A stretch of DNA of 64,000 nt from Rhynchobatus australiae (Eukaryota). Positions 3,342 through 63,985 of this stretch are shown here, one piece after another (within the stretch, counting starts at the first letter, position 1; each line of letters begins with the position of its first letter). The stretch is from NCBI GenBank assembly GCA_034780895.1, contig JAUZTB010000001.1, positions 87,042,454-87,106,453 on the forward strand, given 5' to 3'. The notes under the pieces were generated by a model. That model saw only the letters and a list, made by a program, of their open reading frames with translations. It did not search any database and had not been told where the DNA came from. The translations under genes were made by a program, and so were the position numbers.

Positions 3342-3550
3342 ATTTTATTCTCCTACAGTCCCATCAGCTCCCTTGAGATTCTGCCACTCACCTACACATT
3401 AAGAGTTATTTACAGCGTCCAATTAACCTACCAACCCACAAATTTTTGGGATTTGGGAGAACACTGGAAATGTAGAAAGTCCATACAGACAGCACTGGAG
3501 GTCAGGATTGAACTTGGGTCACACTACTAGCTATGCCATTGTGCTGCCCC
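3342..3550 (-). mobile_element. tRNA-derived V-SINE (HE1-like)
   Basis: Minus-strand head gggcagcac with B-box GTTCAATCC (3505-3513); V-domain block cacctacac...aattaacctacc. Confidence 0.75.
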
Positions 3551-3565
3551 ATATGTATTCTATTT

Positions 3566-4710
3566 TAAGAAGCTTGATGAAGGCAGGGCAGAAGATGTTA
3601 TCTATATGGGCTTTAGTAAGGCATTTGATAAGATTTTACATGGTGGACTGGTCCGGAAGGTTATGGCACATGGGATTCAAGGCAAACTGGGTAATTGGAT
3701 CCAAAACTGGCTTGGTGATAGGAGCCAGAGGGTAGTGGTGGAAAGGTGATTTTCTGGTTGGAATTCTGTGACTAGTGGTGTGCCACAAGGATTGCTGCTG
3801 AGACCTTTTATTATTTATGATGTATATTAATGACTTGGATGTGAATGTAGGAGATATGATTAATACATTTGTAGATTACGTGGAAGTTGGTGTTATGGAT
3901 AGTGAGGCAGGTTGTCCAAGCTGCAGCTGGACACTGGTCAGATGGAAAGTTAGGCAGAATGTTGGCAGATGGAATTTAATCTCAGCCAGTGCAAGGTGAT
4001 GCATTTTGGGAAGTTAAATAAAGGTAGGACATATGATAGGGCATTAAGGAATGTTGATGAACCTCTATGACCCTCTGTTCAAGTTCATAGTTCCCTGAAA
4101 GTGGCAACATAGGTCAATAGGGTTGTGAAGAAGTCATATGGTATGCTTGCCTTCAGAGGTCTGGGCATAGATTATAAAAATTGGGAGACTATGTTGCAAC
4201 TTTACAAAATATTGGAGTATTGTGTGCAGTTCTGATCACCACAGCATAGGAAGGATGTGGTTGTGCTGGTGAGAGTGCAGAGTAGATTGACCAGGTTGTT
4301 GTCTGGATTGAAGAACTTCAATTATGGGGAGAAATTGTATAGGCTGGGCTTGTTTTCCCTGGAGCGAAGACAACTGAGGAGTGACCTGATAGATGAACAT
4401 CAAACTTATGAGAGGCATAGATAGGATGGGAAACTTTTTTGCATGGTAGGGACATCAAAAACAAGAGGGCATGGGTTAGTGGTGAGAGGAAGGTATTTTA
4501 AAGGAAATTTGAGGAGAAAGAGAGAGTGGTTGATATCTGGAACTTGCTGCCAGAGGAGGTGGTGGAGGCAGATACATTTGCCATGTTTAAGAGATGTTTG
4601 GGCAAGGCATGGAAGGATATGAACCTAGTATGGGCAAATGGACAAAAAGTTTGACATGGACGTGGGGAGGCTAAAGGGCCCATTTTTGTGCTTACAACTC
4701 TGACTCTTGT
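3566..4710 (+). mobile_element. 5'-truncated decayed CR1 LINE (RT and 3' UTR)
   Basis: Frameshifted FSKAFDK, VTSGVPQG and YINDLD motifs; 3' tail aagggcc...actctgactct. Confidence 0.9.
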
Positions 4711-5961: not shown

Positions 5962-6520
5962 AAACAGAGGTAGAAAATGTTGGAAGTAATCAGCAGGTCA
6001 GGCAGCATCTGTGCGAGAGAAACAGTCAATAACCTTTTCGTCAGAACTGGAAGAGTGAGAAAACAAATACTTCAAGTTGGAGAGGGATGGAGAAGGAATT
6101 CCTGATAGCAGGACAACCTTGGTTTCACTCTTTCAATGCTGGCAATCAGAGAAAGAAAAGGAACAAAAACAAACATTAGAATTGTGAGATGCATAACCTA
6201 ACATTTGCTGGAAACCTGAAATGAAAGCAAATGCTTGAAATACCCAGTGAAATATCTGTGGAGAGAAAAAAAATTAAGTTAATATTACTGGTGAAAGGCC
6301 TTGCGTCAGAACCAGTCAGTTATAACACAAATGTGGAATGTTGGTAACCTGAAATTGTTGAATTCAGTTTTGAGTTCCATGCCCAGACACAAAATAAAAT
6401 GAGGTGCTGTTCTTTGGGCACTGTTGGAAGTCTGGTCAGTGGGAAATTGATGGAGAATTAAAGTGACTGGTCACTGGAAGCTTGAGATCTACCTTTATGT
6501 ACAGAATGGAGGAACCTCTG
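5962..6520 (-). mobile_element. Penelope-like element 3' end: GIY-YIG C-terminal remnant plus two tandem terminal repeats with decayed hammerhead motifs
   Basis: Minus strand reads LHSVHK..DLKLPVTSHFNSPS..KEQHLIL..TEFNNF; cagttCTGACGA at 6038-6049 and CTGACGCA at ~6302-6309. Confidence 0.75.
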
Positions 6521-7773: not shown

Positions 7774-8450
7774 AGACTAAAGAGACTGCAGACACTCAGA
7801 TCTGGGACAATAAACAGAATGCTGGAAGAACGCAGCCGTTCAAGCAGCTTCTGTGGAGGCAAAAGGTGTGTAAGTCGACGTTTCGGGTCGAGACCCTGNN
7901 NNNNNNNNNNNNNNNNNNNNNNNNNNNNNNNNNNNNNNNNNNNNNNNNNNNNNNNNNNNNNNNNNNNNNNNNNNNNNNNNNNNNNNNNNNNNNNNNNNNN
8001 NNNNNNNNNNNNNNNNNNNNNNNNNNNNNNNNNNNNNNNNNNNNNNNNNNNNNNNNNNNNNNNNNNNNNNNNNNNNNNNNNNNNNNNNNNNNNNNNNNNN
8101 NNNNNNNNNNNNNNNNNNNNNNNNNNNNNNNNNNNNNNNNNNNNNNNNNNNNNNNNNNNNNNNNNNNNNNNNNNNNNNNNNNNNNNNNNNNNNNNNNNNN
8201 NNNNNNNNNNNNNNNNNNNNNNNNNNNNNNNNNNNNNNNNNNNNNNNNNNNNNNNNNNNNNNNNNNNNNNNNNNNNNNNNNNNNNNNNNNNNNNNNNNNN
8301 NNNNNNNNNNNNNNNNNNNCCTGATGAAGGGTCTCAACCCAAAACGTCGACTGTTTATTTCCCTCCATAGATGCTGCCTGATCTGCTGAGTTCCTCTAGT
8401 ATTATGTGTGTGTTGCTCTAGATTCCAGCATTTGCAGAATCTTTTGTCTC
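7774..8450. mobile_element. Penelope-derived element with inverted hammerhead-bearing termini flanking an N gap
   Basis: 7780-7898 is the reverse complement of 8320-8445; CTGATGAAGGGTCTCAACCCAAAACGTCGAC on + and CAGGGTCTCGACCCGAAACGTCGAC on -. Confidence 0.8.
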
Positions 8451-13359: not shown

Positions 13360-13575
13360 CCATTTATTTCAAATTTCTAGCATCTGCAATTTAAAAAAAA
13401 ATTCAGTTGCTGTTGAAACTTGTCCTATCTCTTTCCCAGTTCTAACAAGGGTCACAGGCCCAAAATGTTGACTATTTCTCTTCCCATGGATACTGCCTAA
13501 CTTGCTGATTTTTTTCCCCCAGCATTTTCTGCTTTAATTTCAGATTACCAGCATCTGCAGCTTTTTTTTTTATTT
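13360..13575 (+). mobile_element. Penelope terminal-repeat copy with decayed hammerhead motif
   Basis: cagttctaacaagggtcacaggcccaaaatgttgact followed by the family tail ...ttcagattaccagcatctgcag. Confidence 0.7.
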
Positions 13576-32439: not shown

Positions 32440-32612
32440 CTGCAGTAAGAAACAGAAAGTGTGTTAATGTTTCAAGTTGGTGTCCTTTCAACAGAATACA
32501 GCTCATCGACATGAAATGACAACTGTTTTTCTGTCTCCCCAGTTGCTGCTTGACCTGCTGAGTATTTCCAGCATTTTTTGTTTTTATTTCAGATTTCTAG
32601 CATCTGCAGTTA
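32440..32612. mobile_element. Decayed Penelope terminal repeat, inverted pair
   Basis: gttaatgtttcaagt (minus copy) next to catgaaatgacaactg...gctgcttgacctgctgagtatttccagcat...catctgcag. Confidence 0.65.
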
Positions 32613-32699
32613 CTTCCTTTTAAGATTGTAAAGGCTTTAATTGACTTGAATTTATTCTTGCGTTTTAATAAATTTAAAATTTCAATGCTACTGTCTAGT

Positions 32700-33517: not shown

Positions 33518-33760
<243 letters not shown>

Positions 33761-33881
33761 TGAAAGCCATAAATTCACCTTGGCTCAATGATCCAGAAAT
33801 ATCTTGCATCTGAATATATGGTTGTTTATCGTATTATGTACATGAAAAGATGGAACTATATGCAGATTACTTATTCAGTAC

Positions 33882-34498
33882 AAAAACTTTGAGGCAAAGA
33901 TTCACACACACCTTTTCCAACCTGGTTTGTGGCATTTGGTGCTCGCGATGTGGCCTCCTCTACAACTGTGAGAACCAGTGTAGCTTAGGCAACTGTTTTA
34001 CAGAACACCTGCACTCTGCCATCTTGAGCTTTCAGTTGCATGTCATTTTAACTCTCCTTCCCATTCCCACACTGACCTGTCTGTCCTCTGCCTTTTCCAC
34101 TTCCATGGTGAGGCCAAACGCAAACTAGAAGAACAGCACCTCATATTCTGTTTGGGTAGTCTACAGCCCAGTGGCGCGAACATTAAATTTTCCAATTTAA
34201 GGTAACCCACTACCTCTGTACCTTTTCCATTCCCACCAGTCCACCCAGTCTCTCCCTTTGTTCACCTTTGCCGTCAACCCCCCTGCCTCCCCCACATTAA
34301 CTAAAGTCATCATCCCTCCCCCAACTTGTTCCATCCATCCATCATCCCACCCTTATCCGGTTCCACCTATCACCAAGTCCCGATGCAGGGTCTCAACCTG
34401 AAAATGCCAACCATCCCTTTACCTCCACGGATGCTGAGTTCTTCCGGCATTTTATCCTTTGCTCCAGATTCAAGCACCTGTAGTTGCTTGTGTCTCCT
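33882..34498 (+). mobile_element. 5'-truncated Penelope-like element: GIY-YIG endonuclease remnant and hammerhead-bearing terminal repeat, 15-bp TSD
   Basis: RQRFT..SNLVCGIWCSRCGLLY..E....LG..F.EHL / VACHFNSPSHSH...KRKLEEQHLIFCLGSLQPSG; TSD ttacttattcagtac (33867-33881) vs ttactcatttagtac (34499-34513). Confidence 0.88.
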
Positions 34499-34889
34499 TT
34501 ACTCATTTAGTACCTTCGCTGTGCCTTCAGAATCCAAGTGCAAGTATCCATTTTGTCCTTGATAGGCCCCACACTTCTACCTTCTAGCTTTTTACTATTT
34601 ATATGCCTTTAAAATGCTCTGGACTCCTATTGGAAAATAATTGTTTCTCATGTGGTCCATTTTCATCTCATTTTAATTTTCACTTTGCCTCTGATTATAT
34701 ACATCTTGCTGGCATTAACAATCTGACACTTGGCATTATGTTTTCTTGAACCATTGAGGGGTTTCAGTTGAGTAGATAAACAGTTCACACTTGCAGGTGG
34801 TTCAGTTAGCAGAGGACACAGATATAAAATTAATGGCAAAAAATGAAAGGTGGAGAGTCGGGAGACAAGAGTAGATTGAAAGAAAGGAG

Positions 34890-34992
34890 ACCAAAATACT
34901 GGAAATCTGAAATTAAACAGAAAATACTGGAAATGTTCCACAGGCCAGGTGGCATCTGTGGAGAGAGGAATAATGTTAGTGTTTCAGGTCTG
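34890..34992 (-). mobile_element. Penelope terminal-repeat fragment
   Basis: ctggaaatctgaaat...ggcatctgtggagagag...gttagtgtttcaggtc; similar copy at 37975-38075. Confidence 0.65.
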
Positions 34993-37945: not shown

Positions 37946-38224
37946 GTATCGTGACTAAGATAGTTAGTGAAAATAAAAAAAAACACAGGCATTGAAAATA
38001 TGAAATAAAAACAAAAAATGCTGGGAAAACTCAGCAGGACAGGCCACATCCGTGCAAAGAGAAGCATTAATAGTTAAACATGGATGCTGAATATTACATT
38101 GCACATGAAGAGCAGGGAGAGCTCTCTGGAATTCTGGTCAAGTGACAAAAAGAGAACTTGTAGAAACAACATTTGCAGGTACTAAATATGTTTATTTTTG
38201 TGTTTTTTTTGTTTTGTAACACAG

Positions 38225-44959: not shown

Positions 44960-45385
44960 GATCAGGCTGGGACTGTTGTCCCTGCTGTGAAGGAGGCTGA
45001 AGGGGTGACCTGGTGGAGGTTTATAAAACTATGAGGGGCATAGAAAAGCTGGATTGTCACAGTCTATTTCCATGGGAGGGGAGTCAAAACTAGAGGCCAT
45101 AGGTTTAAGGTGAGAGGGAAACAATTCAAAGGGGATGTGCAGGGCAAGTTTTTTCCATAGCGAGGATAGTGGGTTTATGGAACGAGCTGCCAGAGGAGAT
45201 GGTAGAGGTGGGTACAGTAACAATATGTAAAAGATATTTGGACAGGTATGTGGAGAGGAAAGATTTAGAGGGGTTTGGGCCAAATGCAGGCAAATGGGAC
45301 TGCCTCAGGAAGACACCTTGGTCAGTCTGGATGAACTGGGCTGAAGGGCCTGTTTCCGTACTATATAACTCTATGACCATGACTG
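44960..45385 (+). mobile_element. CR1 LINE 3' end
   Basis: GLWNELPEEMVEVGTVTICKRYLDRYV; gggctgaagggcctgtttcc...ctctatgac tail. Confidence 0.88.
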
Positions 45386-45710
45386 GTACTTTATGGAGTG
45401 CATCCATGGGTGTTATTAGTCTCAAACTTGTAAACTATGTGACAAACCTATCAGCACATTTGAAGAGGATCCAACCCAAAACTGACTCTCTACAAAATTT
45501 TTTTGAAACCAACTTGACCCCAACTCACATGGCTGGACCCTGTTGGGGTTAGTTGGCTAGCCAGGCTCTAATAGTGGACTCGTGCAGAGAGCAGAGCAAG
45601 AAACTTCTATCCATTAATCAAAACTGGACTTGAACCAGAATCCCAGAAGTGAAAGGTCAATGCACCAATAATTCTTCAGCATTGCTCTATAAATCGAGCA
45701 GAATCAGAAG

Positions 45711-45946
45711 TTTGGAGTAACAAACAATCTGCTGGAGGAACTCAGTGGGTTGAGCATCATCTGTGGAGAAAAATAAATTGTCGACAATTTGAGACGAAAT
45801 CTTGCTTCAGGACTGATGCAGGATTTTAACCCGAAACGTCGACAATTTCTTTCCTCCCACAGATGCTGCTTGACCAGCTGAGTTCCTTGAGCAGATTTTT
45901 TTTTGTTGCTCCAGATTCCAGCATCTGCAGGCTCCTGTGTCTTCAT
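45711..45946. mobile_element. Short palindromic Penelope-derived unit (two head-to-head hammerhead-bearing termini), probable 9-bp TSD
   Basis: Left arm 45711-45811 is the reverse complement of 45813-45915; aatcagaag (45702-45710) vs aattagaag (45947-45955). Confidence 0.8.
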
Positions 45947-54377: not shown

Positions 54378-54472
54378 GGATGAAGGGTCTTGACCTGAAG
54401 CGTTGACTGTCTATTTCCATCCACAGATGCCTGCCTGATCTGCTGATTTCCTCCAGCAGTTTATTTTCTGCT
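54378..54472 (+). mobile_element. Penelope terminal-repeat copy (5'-clipped hammerhead motif)
   Basis: gatgaagggtcttgacctgaagcgttgactg...cacagatgcctgcctgatctgctga. Confidence 0.75.
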
Positions 54473-56733
54473 AATAAAACTAATGTCTGAGATTCTAGTT
54501 TTTGTAGATGGGTAGAGATTTAAAACTAAATATAACAATTATTGGTTCATTAAGATTTCATGAGCAGTTTTGGGCGCTCTGTTGTGTGAAATATCTCAAG
54601 GTTATGAAGAACTCATCAAAGAGATTAGCTAAGGTGAAGCTGGGAAAGCTGGGTTTTCATTTGGAGAAACGAATAGAACAGGCTTGCTTCACTGGAACCC
54701 GGGGGAAATCATTGTTTTAATTGTTTTTCTTTGGTCACTTTATATTAACAACTCTGCATCAGCTAATGAGTTGGAAGTATGACTCACAGCAAACAGTCTC
54801 TTATTCTGGAAAGAGTCATTTTCTCAGAAGGCAGTCTGAAAATTGCTGAGGAAATGAATCTCCCACTAAACGTAGAACATTTTGTCCAGAAAAATGCAAT
54901 GAGTGGAGAATGATTGCATATAATTTATATGCATAAAATCGATCTGCCATTTATAGCAGTGTGATTGCCAAGCTTGATGCTGGGAATTACCCTATCATCT
55001 CCAGTCTGTGTTGCTGCTATATGCAGGCTTTTTCTTGAGAAGGGAAATGGGCTAAAACTATTTTTGTTGGTTGCAAGGTCAGTAACTAGATAACTAGATT
55101 GTATTTAAAATTGTCAACAAAATTACAATGCAAAAGGTTAGTTTTTTTTTCATGCCAAGGAAATGCCATTCAAGAAACAGAGAGGTGGAATTGACAGCAG
55201 CTTTTATGAGGGTCATGAATAAATATTGAATAGGGAAAAGCTTAACAGTACGGGAGAAGGTAAGAGACTTTCAGATTTGGCAGTAATGTATTGGCTTAAT
55301 GGCTGCCTTCTGTACCAAAGCATTCCGACTTCAATATTTCCAATGCACTACTTCTCTTTTGTAGACACCATGCTGGGGTGTGGTATGTTAGGTTCACAAT
55401 TGCACCCAGTTTCTTTCTTTCTGTTTTCAACTATGAACCCAGTCACTGAACATGAGCTCAGCTGTGCTTTCATACACACTTGCTGCATTAGTCACCAAGT
55501 AATTGCTGAGCACCCCTTAAATTTAAACTGAAATCTATCAAACTTTCTGTAGGTTTTGGCTGGGGTCTCTTATCCCCTCTATCCTGAAGATTTTAAAAAT
55601 ATTTTAATTGAATATGTGCCAACTCTTTCTGTTGAATTTTGATTCTAACTCAATTGACCAGCCTGCTAAATGGTTACACTCAGTTACACAACATAAACAT
55701 GTGCCGATCTGATGAATGGTTGCCAAGCAAGGCAGGCAGAAGGGTTGGCAAGTATTTTCACTTTGTCTCCTCTGTTACTAATCAGTCCCTGTCAGCACAC
55801 AAGGTTAATGTGGATTTCTTGGCTGAGCATCTTTTAGTAAATTTGGAATGGAATGCAATAAATGTGATTTTATATGTTGATCTTTCCTACTGGTCTCATG
55901 GACCCAGAATAAAATGAAAGGTTTAGTATCCTAGCACATCTCTGTTAGTTCTAACCAGGCGACCTTACCCAGTTGACTTTGGACAAGTTTACCTTGTGGC
56001 TGGCCATGACTCCATTGACTGGTACTTTCTTGTTATTAACACGCATCTTCTCTAGTTAATTGGATTGAGGCCTAAGTCTTGCTGCTTTCCGAAGCTTGCA
56101 TGTCTTATTAAAATTTTGGCTCTTACAATTAGCCAGGCCCGGTTGTTAGTACCATCATCTGTTGCTACACTAGTTTAAGTCAGTATTGAGCTTGGAATTC
56201 CTGTGATTTATTTTCTTGGGATTAGCAGATAAAATTTCAATGTTTAAAAAGCATTTGGACAGGAACTTGGATGGGAAAGGTGTAGCGGGATCTGGGCCTA
56301 ATGCAGGCAAATGGAATTGCCATAGATAGGCATCATGATTGGCATGGATGAGATTGGCTGAAAGGGCTCATTTCTGTGCAGTACGTTTATATGATTGCAC
56401 CCCAAAGGTCCATTGAAATTTCACAAGCAAGATCTATATCAAACCGAACAAGTAAAATACTGCTTTATATCAGAGTTGTTTTAAGTGGTATATCATCTAA
56501 ATACTTAAAGTTTAAAATGTGGCATAAAAACTGTTAATCAACTTGAAGCCTAATTTCTTGGCATATTACATGGCTTGCTTTTTAGAATGTAAAGTGCTGG
56601 CATTTCAGGAGGGTTAGTGATATCTTAGAATCCTATTGGATTTCCCACCACCTTTCCCACATTGCTTTCTTTCCCACCGTCCCATTATAGCTTTCTGTGA
56701 GATTAACCGACTGTATTCTTCTGCTTCACACAG

Positions 56734-62959: not shown

Positions 62960-63985
62960 TCAAGGTTCCTATCCACCTCTAAACTTGCAGAGCTCCATAT
63001 ATTAAGGACCAATTCCAAAATTGTCATCCAACCTGCTGGCAAGGGCACTGTTGTTTTTTAGTGTACTAACCAATCTCCTTCTGGACAATTCATGACCTCA
63101 TTTCCTCTGGAGATTCTTCCAATTCCTACAACCTCCTCTGATTTACCTCAACTAAAGGCCTGGGTAGAGTGCACATGGAGAGGATGTTTCCATTAGTAGG
63201 AGAATCTAGGATCCAGGGGCACAGCCTCAGAATAAAGGGATGTCCCTTTAGAACTTGGATGAGGAGGAATTTCTTCAGCATGTGGTGAATCTGTGGAATT
63301 TGTTGTTAAAGAGGGCGATGGAAGCCAAGTCATTGGGTATATTTAAGGCAGAGATTGATAGGTTCTTGACTGGTTAAGGTTTACAGGGAGAAGGCAGGAG
63401 GATGGGGTTGAAAAAAAAATCAGCCATGNNNNNNNNNNNNNNNNNNNNNNNNNNNNNNNNNNNNNNNNNNNNNNNNNNNNNNNNNNNNNNNNNNNNNNNN
63501 NNNNNNNNNNNNNNNNNNNNNNNNNNNNGATTGAATGGTGGAGCAGACTCGATGAGCCAAATGGCCTAATCCTGCTCCTATATGTTACGGCCTTATGGTA
63601 ACTATGCACAGCCCGCATCTATCTCCTCCCCAAGATGCATAACCAAGACTGCTTCAGCAGACGTGACTTTTTAACCTGTTGTTGCAAGGCAGAATATTCC
63701 TTCTCCCTCTGTCCTTTTTGTCCTTTCTCTTCCTATCTGTAAATGCAACACTTCTGACACCCGTCATTTTAAGTTTCTTGATTCCATCCAGTAAATTTTT
63801 ACCATGAACCTCCAATCTCACTACACTCTATCCCATGTTAAAAAATCATGAACGCCCTTCGCTTCTTCCTTGATCAGAGGCCAGATCAGTCATCGTCCTC
63901 TACTACCATCATCACCAGCACCCTCCTTTGCCTGGCTGAACTTCTTGCATTGAATAGCTCCTTTAGATCCACTCAGTTTCTTAAT
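62960..63985 (+). mobile_element. Decayed Penelope-like reverse transcriptase, interrupted by a CR1
   Basis: IVIQPAGKGTVV (~63020), ARIYLLPKMH (~63611), FTMNLQSHYT (~63798), ALRFFLDQRPDQS, TLLCLAELL; these match PLE RT motifs KPADKG, YLLPKIHK and D..SLYT. Confidence 0.8.
63155..63599 (+). mobile_element. Younger CR1 3' end nested in the Penelope RT, AACTA TSD
   Basis: AACTA at 63150-63154 and 63600-63604; gatgaggaggaatttcttcag...aatggcctaatcctgctcctata tail. Confidence 0.85.

Follow-up and report, generated by a model that had tools for sequence, protein, structure and literature searches.

Hammerhead ribozymes reside in the pseudo-LTRs of metazoan Penelope-like elements, where they have been proposed to process precursors (Cervera and De la Pena, 2014; PMC4209133). 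Their role is debated, as later work found cleavage to be dispensable in vitro and the motif to be absent from one successful clade. For the Poseidon element PAc of the anole, unprocessed RNA is the main substrate and catalytic mutants of the hammerhead leave insertion unchanged in vitro; the same study reports no RNA ends mapping to the cut site, and the ribozyme cuts only with its protein (Frangieh et al., 2024; PMC11167929). Naiad elements multiply although they lack the hammerhead motif (Craig et al., 2021; PMC8557442). Non-LTR retrozymes, likewise derived from pseudo-LTRs, have been described together with Penelope-like elements in one chondrichthyan genome; they form tandem arrays, whereas the copies discussed here are dispersed (Li et al., 2026; bioRxiv 10.64898/2026.07.22.740005). 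In Rhynchobatus australiae the element type and its motif are of a kind known already (PMC4209133), and the fresh feature is a lineage-wide change at a normally fixed core position in elements that went on spreading.

The element that drew attention to this family lies at positions 33882-34498 (plus strand) of a 64,000-nucleotide stretch of R. australiae DNA, hereafter the window, within an intron of PACS2. It is a 5′-truncated Penelope-like element consisting of the end of a GIY-YIG endonuclease, a 3′ UTR and a terminal repeat, and belongs to subfamily D (subfamily letters are our own labels). Target-site duplications of 15 bp flank it on the left (33867-33881, plus) and right (34499-34513, plus); they are identical at 13/15 positions, with both mismatches C/T, in agreement with the 15-bp duplication described in the earlier note. 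Only 1 of ~3000 random 40-mer pairs equals this match, and duplications of 12-18 bp are a trait of the family (15/183 copies vs 2/549 controls). The endonuclease remnant (33886-34205, plus) is putatively of Neptune type, frameshifted and 5′-truncated, and stops at its own TAA. Its reported GIY-YIG identity holds, in that 33886-34202 matches shark and ray RT plus GIY-YIG proteins in two frames (tblastn E 2e-22), with profile-search values of E 4e-25 and 5e-10 against a best value of E 1.2 in the reversed control. The nearest proteins are the RT plus GIY-YIG proteins of whale shark, zebra shark, devil ray and skate, with echinoderms next. In Pfam, window fragments alone matched no family (0/3), and relatives gave a best E of only 0.006.

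The hammerhead motif had been placed directly after the endonuclease, but a pyrimidine-rich 3′ UTR of 170 bp (34206-34374, plus) intervenes, from which, in a comparison by eye with relatives, ~65 bp just 5′ of the motif have been deleted. The motif letters quoted earlier were recovered at 34375-34408, and the decayed minimal hammerhead as a whole occupies 34375-34413 (plus); at 34407, other copies have T. The remaining pseudo-LTR (34414-34497, plus) carries a 12-bp internal deletion, and the element end near 34497 is marked by loose ends past 34497 in 57 and 53 contigs. The insertion probably arose by target-primed reverse transcription. Contigs of a second organism, ~2% diverged in the flank, span both of its junctions, which shows that the insertion predates that split. 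The locus is an old, broken and ordinary dead repeat of a known Penelope-like type.

Membership among Penelope-like elements, also proposed previously, is supported. The family has the C-terminal GIY-YIG endonuclease with a CCHH motif expected of EN+ Penelope-like elements, and shares with the Neptune and Nematis groups the C-terminal GIY-YIG, the CxxC and two conserved histidines, as well as inverted, 5′-truncated pseudo-LTRs (Craig et al., 2021; PMC8557442). The CX2-5CxxC linker between RT and endonuclease is present in three relatives (L121, L108, L017) and in the D consensus, with the form CX4CxxC in relatives; the focal copy has lost it by truncation. The linker is common to the Neptune and Nematis groups (PMC8557442), and the Neptune-type label given here is based on motifs. 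An RT may have stood upstream of the endonuclease: related loci have RT remnants there, and homologous proteins contain RVT_1 plus GIY-YIG, the focal copy being truncated.

The repeat lies downstream of the endonuclease in 51 copies, as expected of a pseudo-LTR. Close neighbors are mostly head-to-head (22 of 36 pairs, among 151 matches), like the arrangement drawn for Penelope-like elements in PMC8557442, and recognizable duplications flank 7/52 head-to-head pairs vs 0/52 controls. No element with two direct pseudo-LTRs was found among the examined loci. No intact ORF occurred in the 15 loci chosen for long frames (0 intact), and frames of 842 and 702 aa, considered as candidates, were rejected, as both proved to be N gaps. 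A full-length intact element was not recovered either, so the link of any one RT to one motif is putative. The endonuclease also appears inside gene models of sharks and rays that bear the names mucin-2, receptor-transporting protein 3-like or divergent kinase domain 1C (P0004, P0006, P0007, P0008), which may be either an annotation artefact or exonization.

The minimal type-I hammerhead architecture proposed for the motif is supported. In common with the published minimal hammerhead (min-HHR), the motif has a type-I layout without helix III, a palindromic ACGU, an extra base between positions 9 and 10.1, a G10.1-C11.1 pair, a helix I of 3-5 bp and a location past the endonuclease stop; other shared features are the predominance of single truncated copies, opposite-strand pairs and many consensus families per genome (PMC4209133). 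The palindromic 15.1-16.1 segment that stands in place of helix III reads ACGU in 8/8 subfamily consensuses after CpG correction, and is broken in the focal copy. N7, position 17 and loop II are variable, as the consensus CUGANGAH...GAAA N palindrome NUH permits. Loop II consists of four bases in B-F (CUCG, with UUCG in E and CCUG in F). Every subfamily is also predicted to form another long hairpin 3′ of the motif. The core itself, CUGANGAH...GAAA, is intact in subfamilies A, B and F, and fails in the focal copy (A9C, U4C, U16.1C) and in its subfamily, A9C being present in D and E.

Reading the copies as ribozymes able to cut lacks support: the core and helices of the focal copy show four defects, and its subfamily departs from the consensus at position 9. 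Whereas A9C is the state of the subfamily, U4C, U16.1C, G1.1A (which breaks the first helix-I pair) and an extra A after GAAA are private to this copy; folding into the two helices is lost, its hammerhead is predicted to be inactive and the copy is likely dead. The earlier note had also suggested several checks. Compensatory changes in helices I and II do exist, but amount to only about two events, both between subfamilies: pair 2.1-1.1 is C-G vs U-A (P 4e-4) and pair 10.1-11.1 is G-C vs A-U or G-U (P 0.015), where A has U-A at the former and A-U or G-U at the latter, the rest have C-G and G-C, and the other pairs are invariant. Rfam hammerhead covariance models hit nothing in the window, and likewise gave 0 matches in 7 loci with intact motifs. 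A strict descriptor passed 0 window copies and 2 copies in sampled stretches, both of subfamily F, with 0 in the reversed control; exact intact motifs of the B/F type number 1101 genome-wide. Two intact F-type motifs, preceded by a partial third, lie 76 bases apart on the same strand at L234 (~1440-1690; G000:C1:2828170-2828420). The short spacer between the two is of non-pseudo-LTR sequence, and among the sites seen only this one could give rise to a dimeric hammerhead in cis.

All ten further positions at which the repeat had been reported in the window are matched by a terminal-repeat profile, which yields 12 matches in total, one position (45.8 kb) being a head-to-head pair; five shuffles and the reversed window gave 0. 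Copies of the oldest subfamily (A) are a profile match with a partly deleted motif (5972-6054, minus), a pseudo-LTR (6195-6314) with its endonuclease remnant (6328-6514; together 6195-6514, minus), a copy with a decayed core (13434-13566, plus), one in which the first half of the motif is unaligned (32506-32613, plus) and a separate insertion beyond the focal duplication (34895-34990, minus). The A9C type is represented by a copy whose 5′ part is lost in an N gap (7775-7898, minus) and by a head-to-head pair of subfamily E (45697-45941; 45697-45818 minus, 45806-45941 plus), around which a target duplication was sought and not found. The window also holds a pseudo-LTR of the canonical-core subfamily B with G12 gone through CpG decay (8319-8448, plus), a copy of subfamily C2 missing the start of the core (54379-54490, plus) and a fragment without the motif (38009-38064, minus).

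It had been noted that RT (63 kb), endonuclease (6.4 and 34 kb) and ribozyme are all visible in this one window; the sequences are indeed present, but they were inserted separately and belong to different subfamilies. At the protein level the 6.4-kb endonuclease is weak (E 0.008-0.15); it is matched at the DNA level, is linked to the repeat at 6195-6314 and groups with the oldest subfamily in the tree described below. The Penelope-type RT (62969-63937, plus) consists of three or four short colinear scraps with other DNA between them, of which 62969-63055, 63620-63694 and 63824-63937 are profile matches (best E 2e-4). Fragments resembling the 3′ end and RT of a LINE, putatively of CR1 type, occur at 63150-63400, ~3430-4620 and 45110-45320, and one of these interrupts the Penelope RT remnant at 63 kb.

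The repeat is, as had been claimed, of high copy number, at ~200/Mb. A genome sample of 80 evenly spaced 10-kb stretches (645,475 readable bases) contains 139 matches, or 215/Mb, vs 197/Mb in the window, which extrapolates roughly to a few hundred thousand copies in total; for the endonuclease tip, a first look across the genome gave 35,039 candidates. N gaps frequently adjoin repeats (window 7899-8319, L260, L261 and many other loci), so the assembly probably under-represents copies that are young or palindromic. Apparent tandem dimers at L260 and L261 were rejected as likely assembly artefacts, being identical stretches that flank a 100-N gap.

PACS2, through whose introns the repeats were said to be dispersed, is real: ten exons map to the plus strand (26045-61109), one of them 100% identical to chondrichthyan PACS2. 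Five copies, however, lie before 26 kb, upstream of the first exon found, and are intronic only by inference; exon 1 is absent from the window and the preceding 10 kb. Further PACS-family exon sets occur elsewhere in the genome (contigs C63, C2, C9451, C24169, C38931). The focal element lies in sense orientation 232 bp downstream of the exon at 33542-33634. That proximity to a donor site, and its presence in the ~2%-diverged relative, could suggest that intronic copies act on PACS2 pre-mRNA, by cutting or by pairing in trans, yet this is highly improbable given that 0 window copies pass the strict descriptor, that the focal motif no longer folds as a hammerhead and that density and strand ratio are ordinary. 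An enrichment or strand bias of the repeats at PACS2 was in fact considered and rejected, as the density is the genome average and the 12 copies divide into 6 sense and 6 antisense. Most probably the repeats would have no effect on PACS2.

The single consensus drawn by eye in the earlier note captured the architecture correctly, but merged at least six subfamilies, and the A/C it showed at position 9 marks subfamilies and is not a wobble. Clustering on the sequence downstream of the motif only, which classified 383 of 423 matches, places C at position 9 in 63/70 copies of D and E vs 9/110 others (P 2e-30), in copies unselected for core pattern. The fixed core states are canonical in A, B and F and A9C in D, E and G, the lineage of the focal copy, with U4A in part of C. 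U4A was found in 19/23 copies of C vs 10/140 others, and a core-blind sample gave 6/12 readable C-type copies vs 1/13 of B type. Exact counts across the genome, made with patterns that suit B-E and miss A and F, are 1893 canonical, 759 A9C, 2066 U4A and 475 for the other 13 combinations (total 5193; reversed controls 0), by which the U4A variant, too, was amplified, in similar numbers.

These lineages differ from the published min-HHRs, for which the named core variant is U3-A8, in that position 9 is C in the focal lineage and position 4 is A in part of another (PMC4209133). Among the alignment rows of that study that were available, none has C at position 9, and the parts of its supplement searched contain no shark, skate or chimaera term. 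Within the literature searched, which did not extend to subscription journals, Repbase or Dfam, a lineage-wide A9C or U4A is not mentioned; the relevant portions of PMC6155905 and PMC11014351 have nothing on either change. Divergence from consensus is greatest in A (0.18-0.20, the oldest), followed by D (0.14), E and C2 (0.12), C (0.105), F (0.098) and B (0.088). By median divergence the canonical B and F are the youngest (0.07-0.10), whereas the A9C subfamilies are older (0.12-0.15) and have ended. Only 6/574 sampled copies lie <2% from any consensus, and all subfamilies look extinct or nearly so in this sample.

The history of the A9C lineage was addressed with a tree of 50 endonuclease-linked copies (51 in all, with L020 unassigned to a group), from which CpG columns and the ribozyme core were left out and which was rooted on A. 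F branches first, and 29/30 rows of D, E and G form one clade (support 96/89), within which E (100/94) and G (97/95) are distinct; a single clade of all 30 D/E/G rows is unrejected (AU p 0.44). The AU test rejected a grouping of C, D, E and G as one clade (p 0.027). Subfamily B, young and canonical, is nested within U4A rows (99/92), which could be due to reversion to the canonical core or to exchange of terminal repeats between lineages.

With CpG masked, the endonuclease consensuses differ at synonymous and replacement sites in ratios of 10:3 (D-E), 9:1 (D-G) and 14:3 (E-G), compared with 215:413 for copies decaying neutrally from their own consensus (P 0.002, 0.0005 and 8e-5, respectively), where the E and G consensuses are built from 4 copies each, G is partly defined by the tree and 29 loci were chosen by likeness to the focal copy. 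This synonymous excess suggests that protein function was selected after the core change, and that the endonucleases of the A9C subfamilies diverged under purifying selection. In the D consensus the endonuclease frame is open and includes both the linker and the catalytic motifs. The motif, for its part, differs at only 1/34 positions between D and E and at 1/34 between D and B (position 9 only), while 0.8 of synonymous sites differ between the D and B endonucleases. The motif is no more conserved between D and E than the rest of the repeat (1/34 vs 8/95 downstream, P 0.44), so that constraint appears to cover the whole repeat and not the motif alone. A lower mismatch in the core (0.087) than downstream (0.128) was considered as a sign of selection on copies and rejected, as it is confounded by alignment and mixed subfamilies. 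It is a serious prospect, though one to which we give slightly less than even weight, that a vertebrate Penelope lineage lost catalysis through a fixed A9C and yet gave rise to three protein-competent subfamilies with the rest of the motif almost unchanged.

Whether A9C abolishes cutting bears directly on this. In the active hammerhead fold, A9 pairs with G12. A C inserted after G8 would leave the next A free to pair with G12 as A9, in which case A9C would be a working variant and only single copies would be dead. In keeping with this, the A next to G10.1 is retained in 65/70 copies of D and E, D differs from B at a single motif position, and helix II, GAAA, the ACGU palindrome and 3-4 bp of helix I are retained. 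Weakly active core variants with insertions occur in nature (PMC3088659), and cutting by the anole ribozyme depends on its own protein (PMC11167929). We nevertheless regard a working A9C as unlikely, though worth serious attention: the published consensus is CUGANGAH (PMC4209133), the variants that the examined section of PMC3088659 names do not include an insertion between G8 and A9, a second core change, U4A, was amplified to similar numbers, and there is no excess of 5′ ends at the cut site. The literature searched holds no passage that measures A9C in a motif with the extra A. When a different hammerhead was scanned, every single mutant of the CUGA turn showed low activity (PMC9901934).

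The 5′ ends of copies offer a view of whether their templates were cut. Of 98 unselected copies, 0 start in the 5-base bin containing the cut site and 75 start from -15 to +24; the majority begin inside the first half of the motif or immediately upstream of it. The histogram is biased toward -15 to 0 for A and F, whose upstream sequence is unlike the model. Candidate starts at the cut site genome-wide number 13/1651 for B and 37/4019 for the C type (P 0.75). The upstream motif is still present in 5/13 B candidates and in 9 of the 30 C candidates inspected by eye out of 37, and 4 B and 3 C candidates are head-to-head joints through a 5-base helix-I match. After dropping copies with the upstream motif and allowing for a 3/8 chance of detection, cut-site starts make up <2% in both B and C. 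The canonical subfamily has no excess of cut-site starts in this comparison, which covers B and C only, is without an offset control and is weakened by the fact that U4A is only partly fixed in C. Short 5′ ends occur in all three core types (13/40, 15/35 and 17/55). Head-to-head joints exactly on the 5-base helix-I match were seen at L270, L271, L272, L280, L286, L291 and L311, as if two cDNAs had annealed through complementary helix-I strands.

The scarcity of cut-site starts agrees with the anole element, which likewise has a hammerhead in its pseudo-LTR and inserts from uncut RNA; the anole evidence comes from engineered mutants in vitro, whereas here natural core changes are borne by whole lineages (PMC11167929). 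On balance, and by a narrow preference, we favor the explanation that the copies derive from uncut RNA, that cutting was poor or absent in the A9C lineage, which spread nonetheless, and that cleavage was dispensable while the sequence remained constrained. Target-primed reverse transcription of uncut RNA would start at the end of the pseudo-LTR and mostly truncate early, leaving single or head-to-head repeats between the duplications of a staggered cut, with copies decaying afterwards. In spite of this, master elements that encoded a functional protein would have succeeded one another several times in the A9C lineage, and the spread of the lineage would mean that self-cleavage was unneeded for it. 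The motif was likely kept for a second job in the pseudo-LTR, such as the start of RNA, protein binding or pairing during reverse transcription.

Some observations run counter to this explanation. The extra A adjoining G10.1 could stand in for A9, and the motif is strikingly stable. Furthermore, canonical cores are found in the oldest subfamily (A) and in the two youngest (B and F), whereas the A9C subfamilies are older and ended, a pattern that fits long-term selection for cutting. Cleavage might then matter in the long term, with A9C and U4A marking bursts of handicapped masters that were partly served by the proteins of canonical elements and died out. The nesting of the young canonical B in U4A rows, as a possible reversion, and the 1101 exact intact motifs of B/F type that are left would accord with such a history. 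It seems improbable all the same, since the A9C clade's own endonucleases appear to have been under purifying selection in three subfamilies, and all subfamilies in the sample, canonical ones included, look extinct or close to it.

If uncut RNA was indeed the template and the A9C lineage spread without cleavage, the motif would serve the pseudo-LTR primarily as a structural signal and secondarily as a ribozyme, and the genome would hold a natural allelic series (canonical, A9C and U4A) for testing the role of the motif. Sibling subfamilies one core base apart offer a small and direct test of the need for cleavage. Should A9C prove to cut, it would be a new natural core variant; should it prove dead, cleavage would have been dispensable in a genome over a long time.
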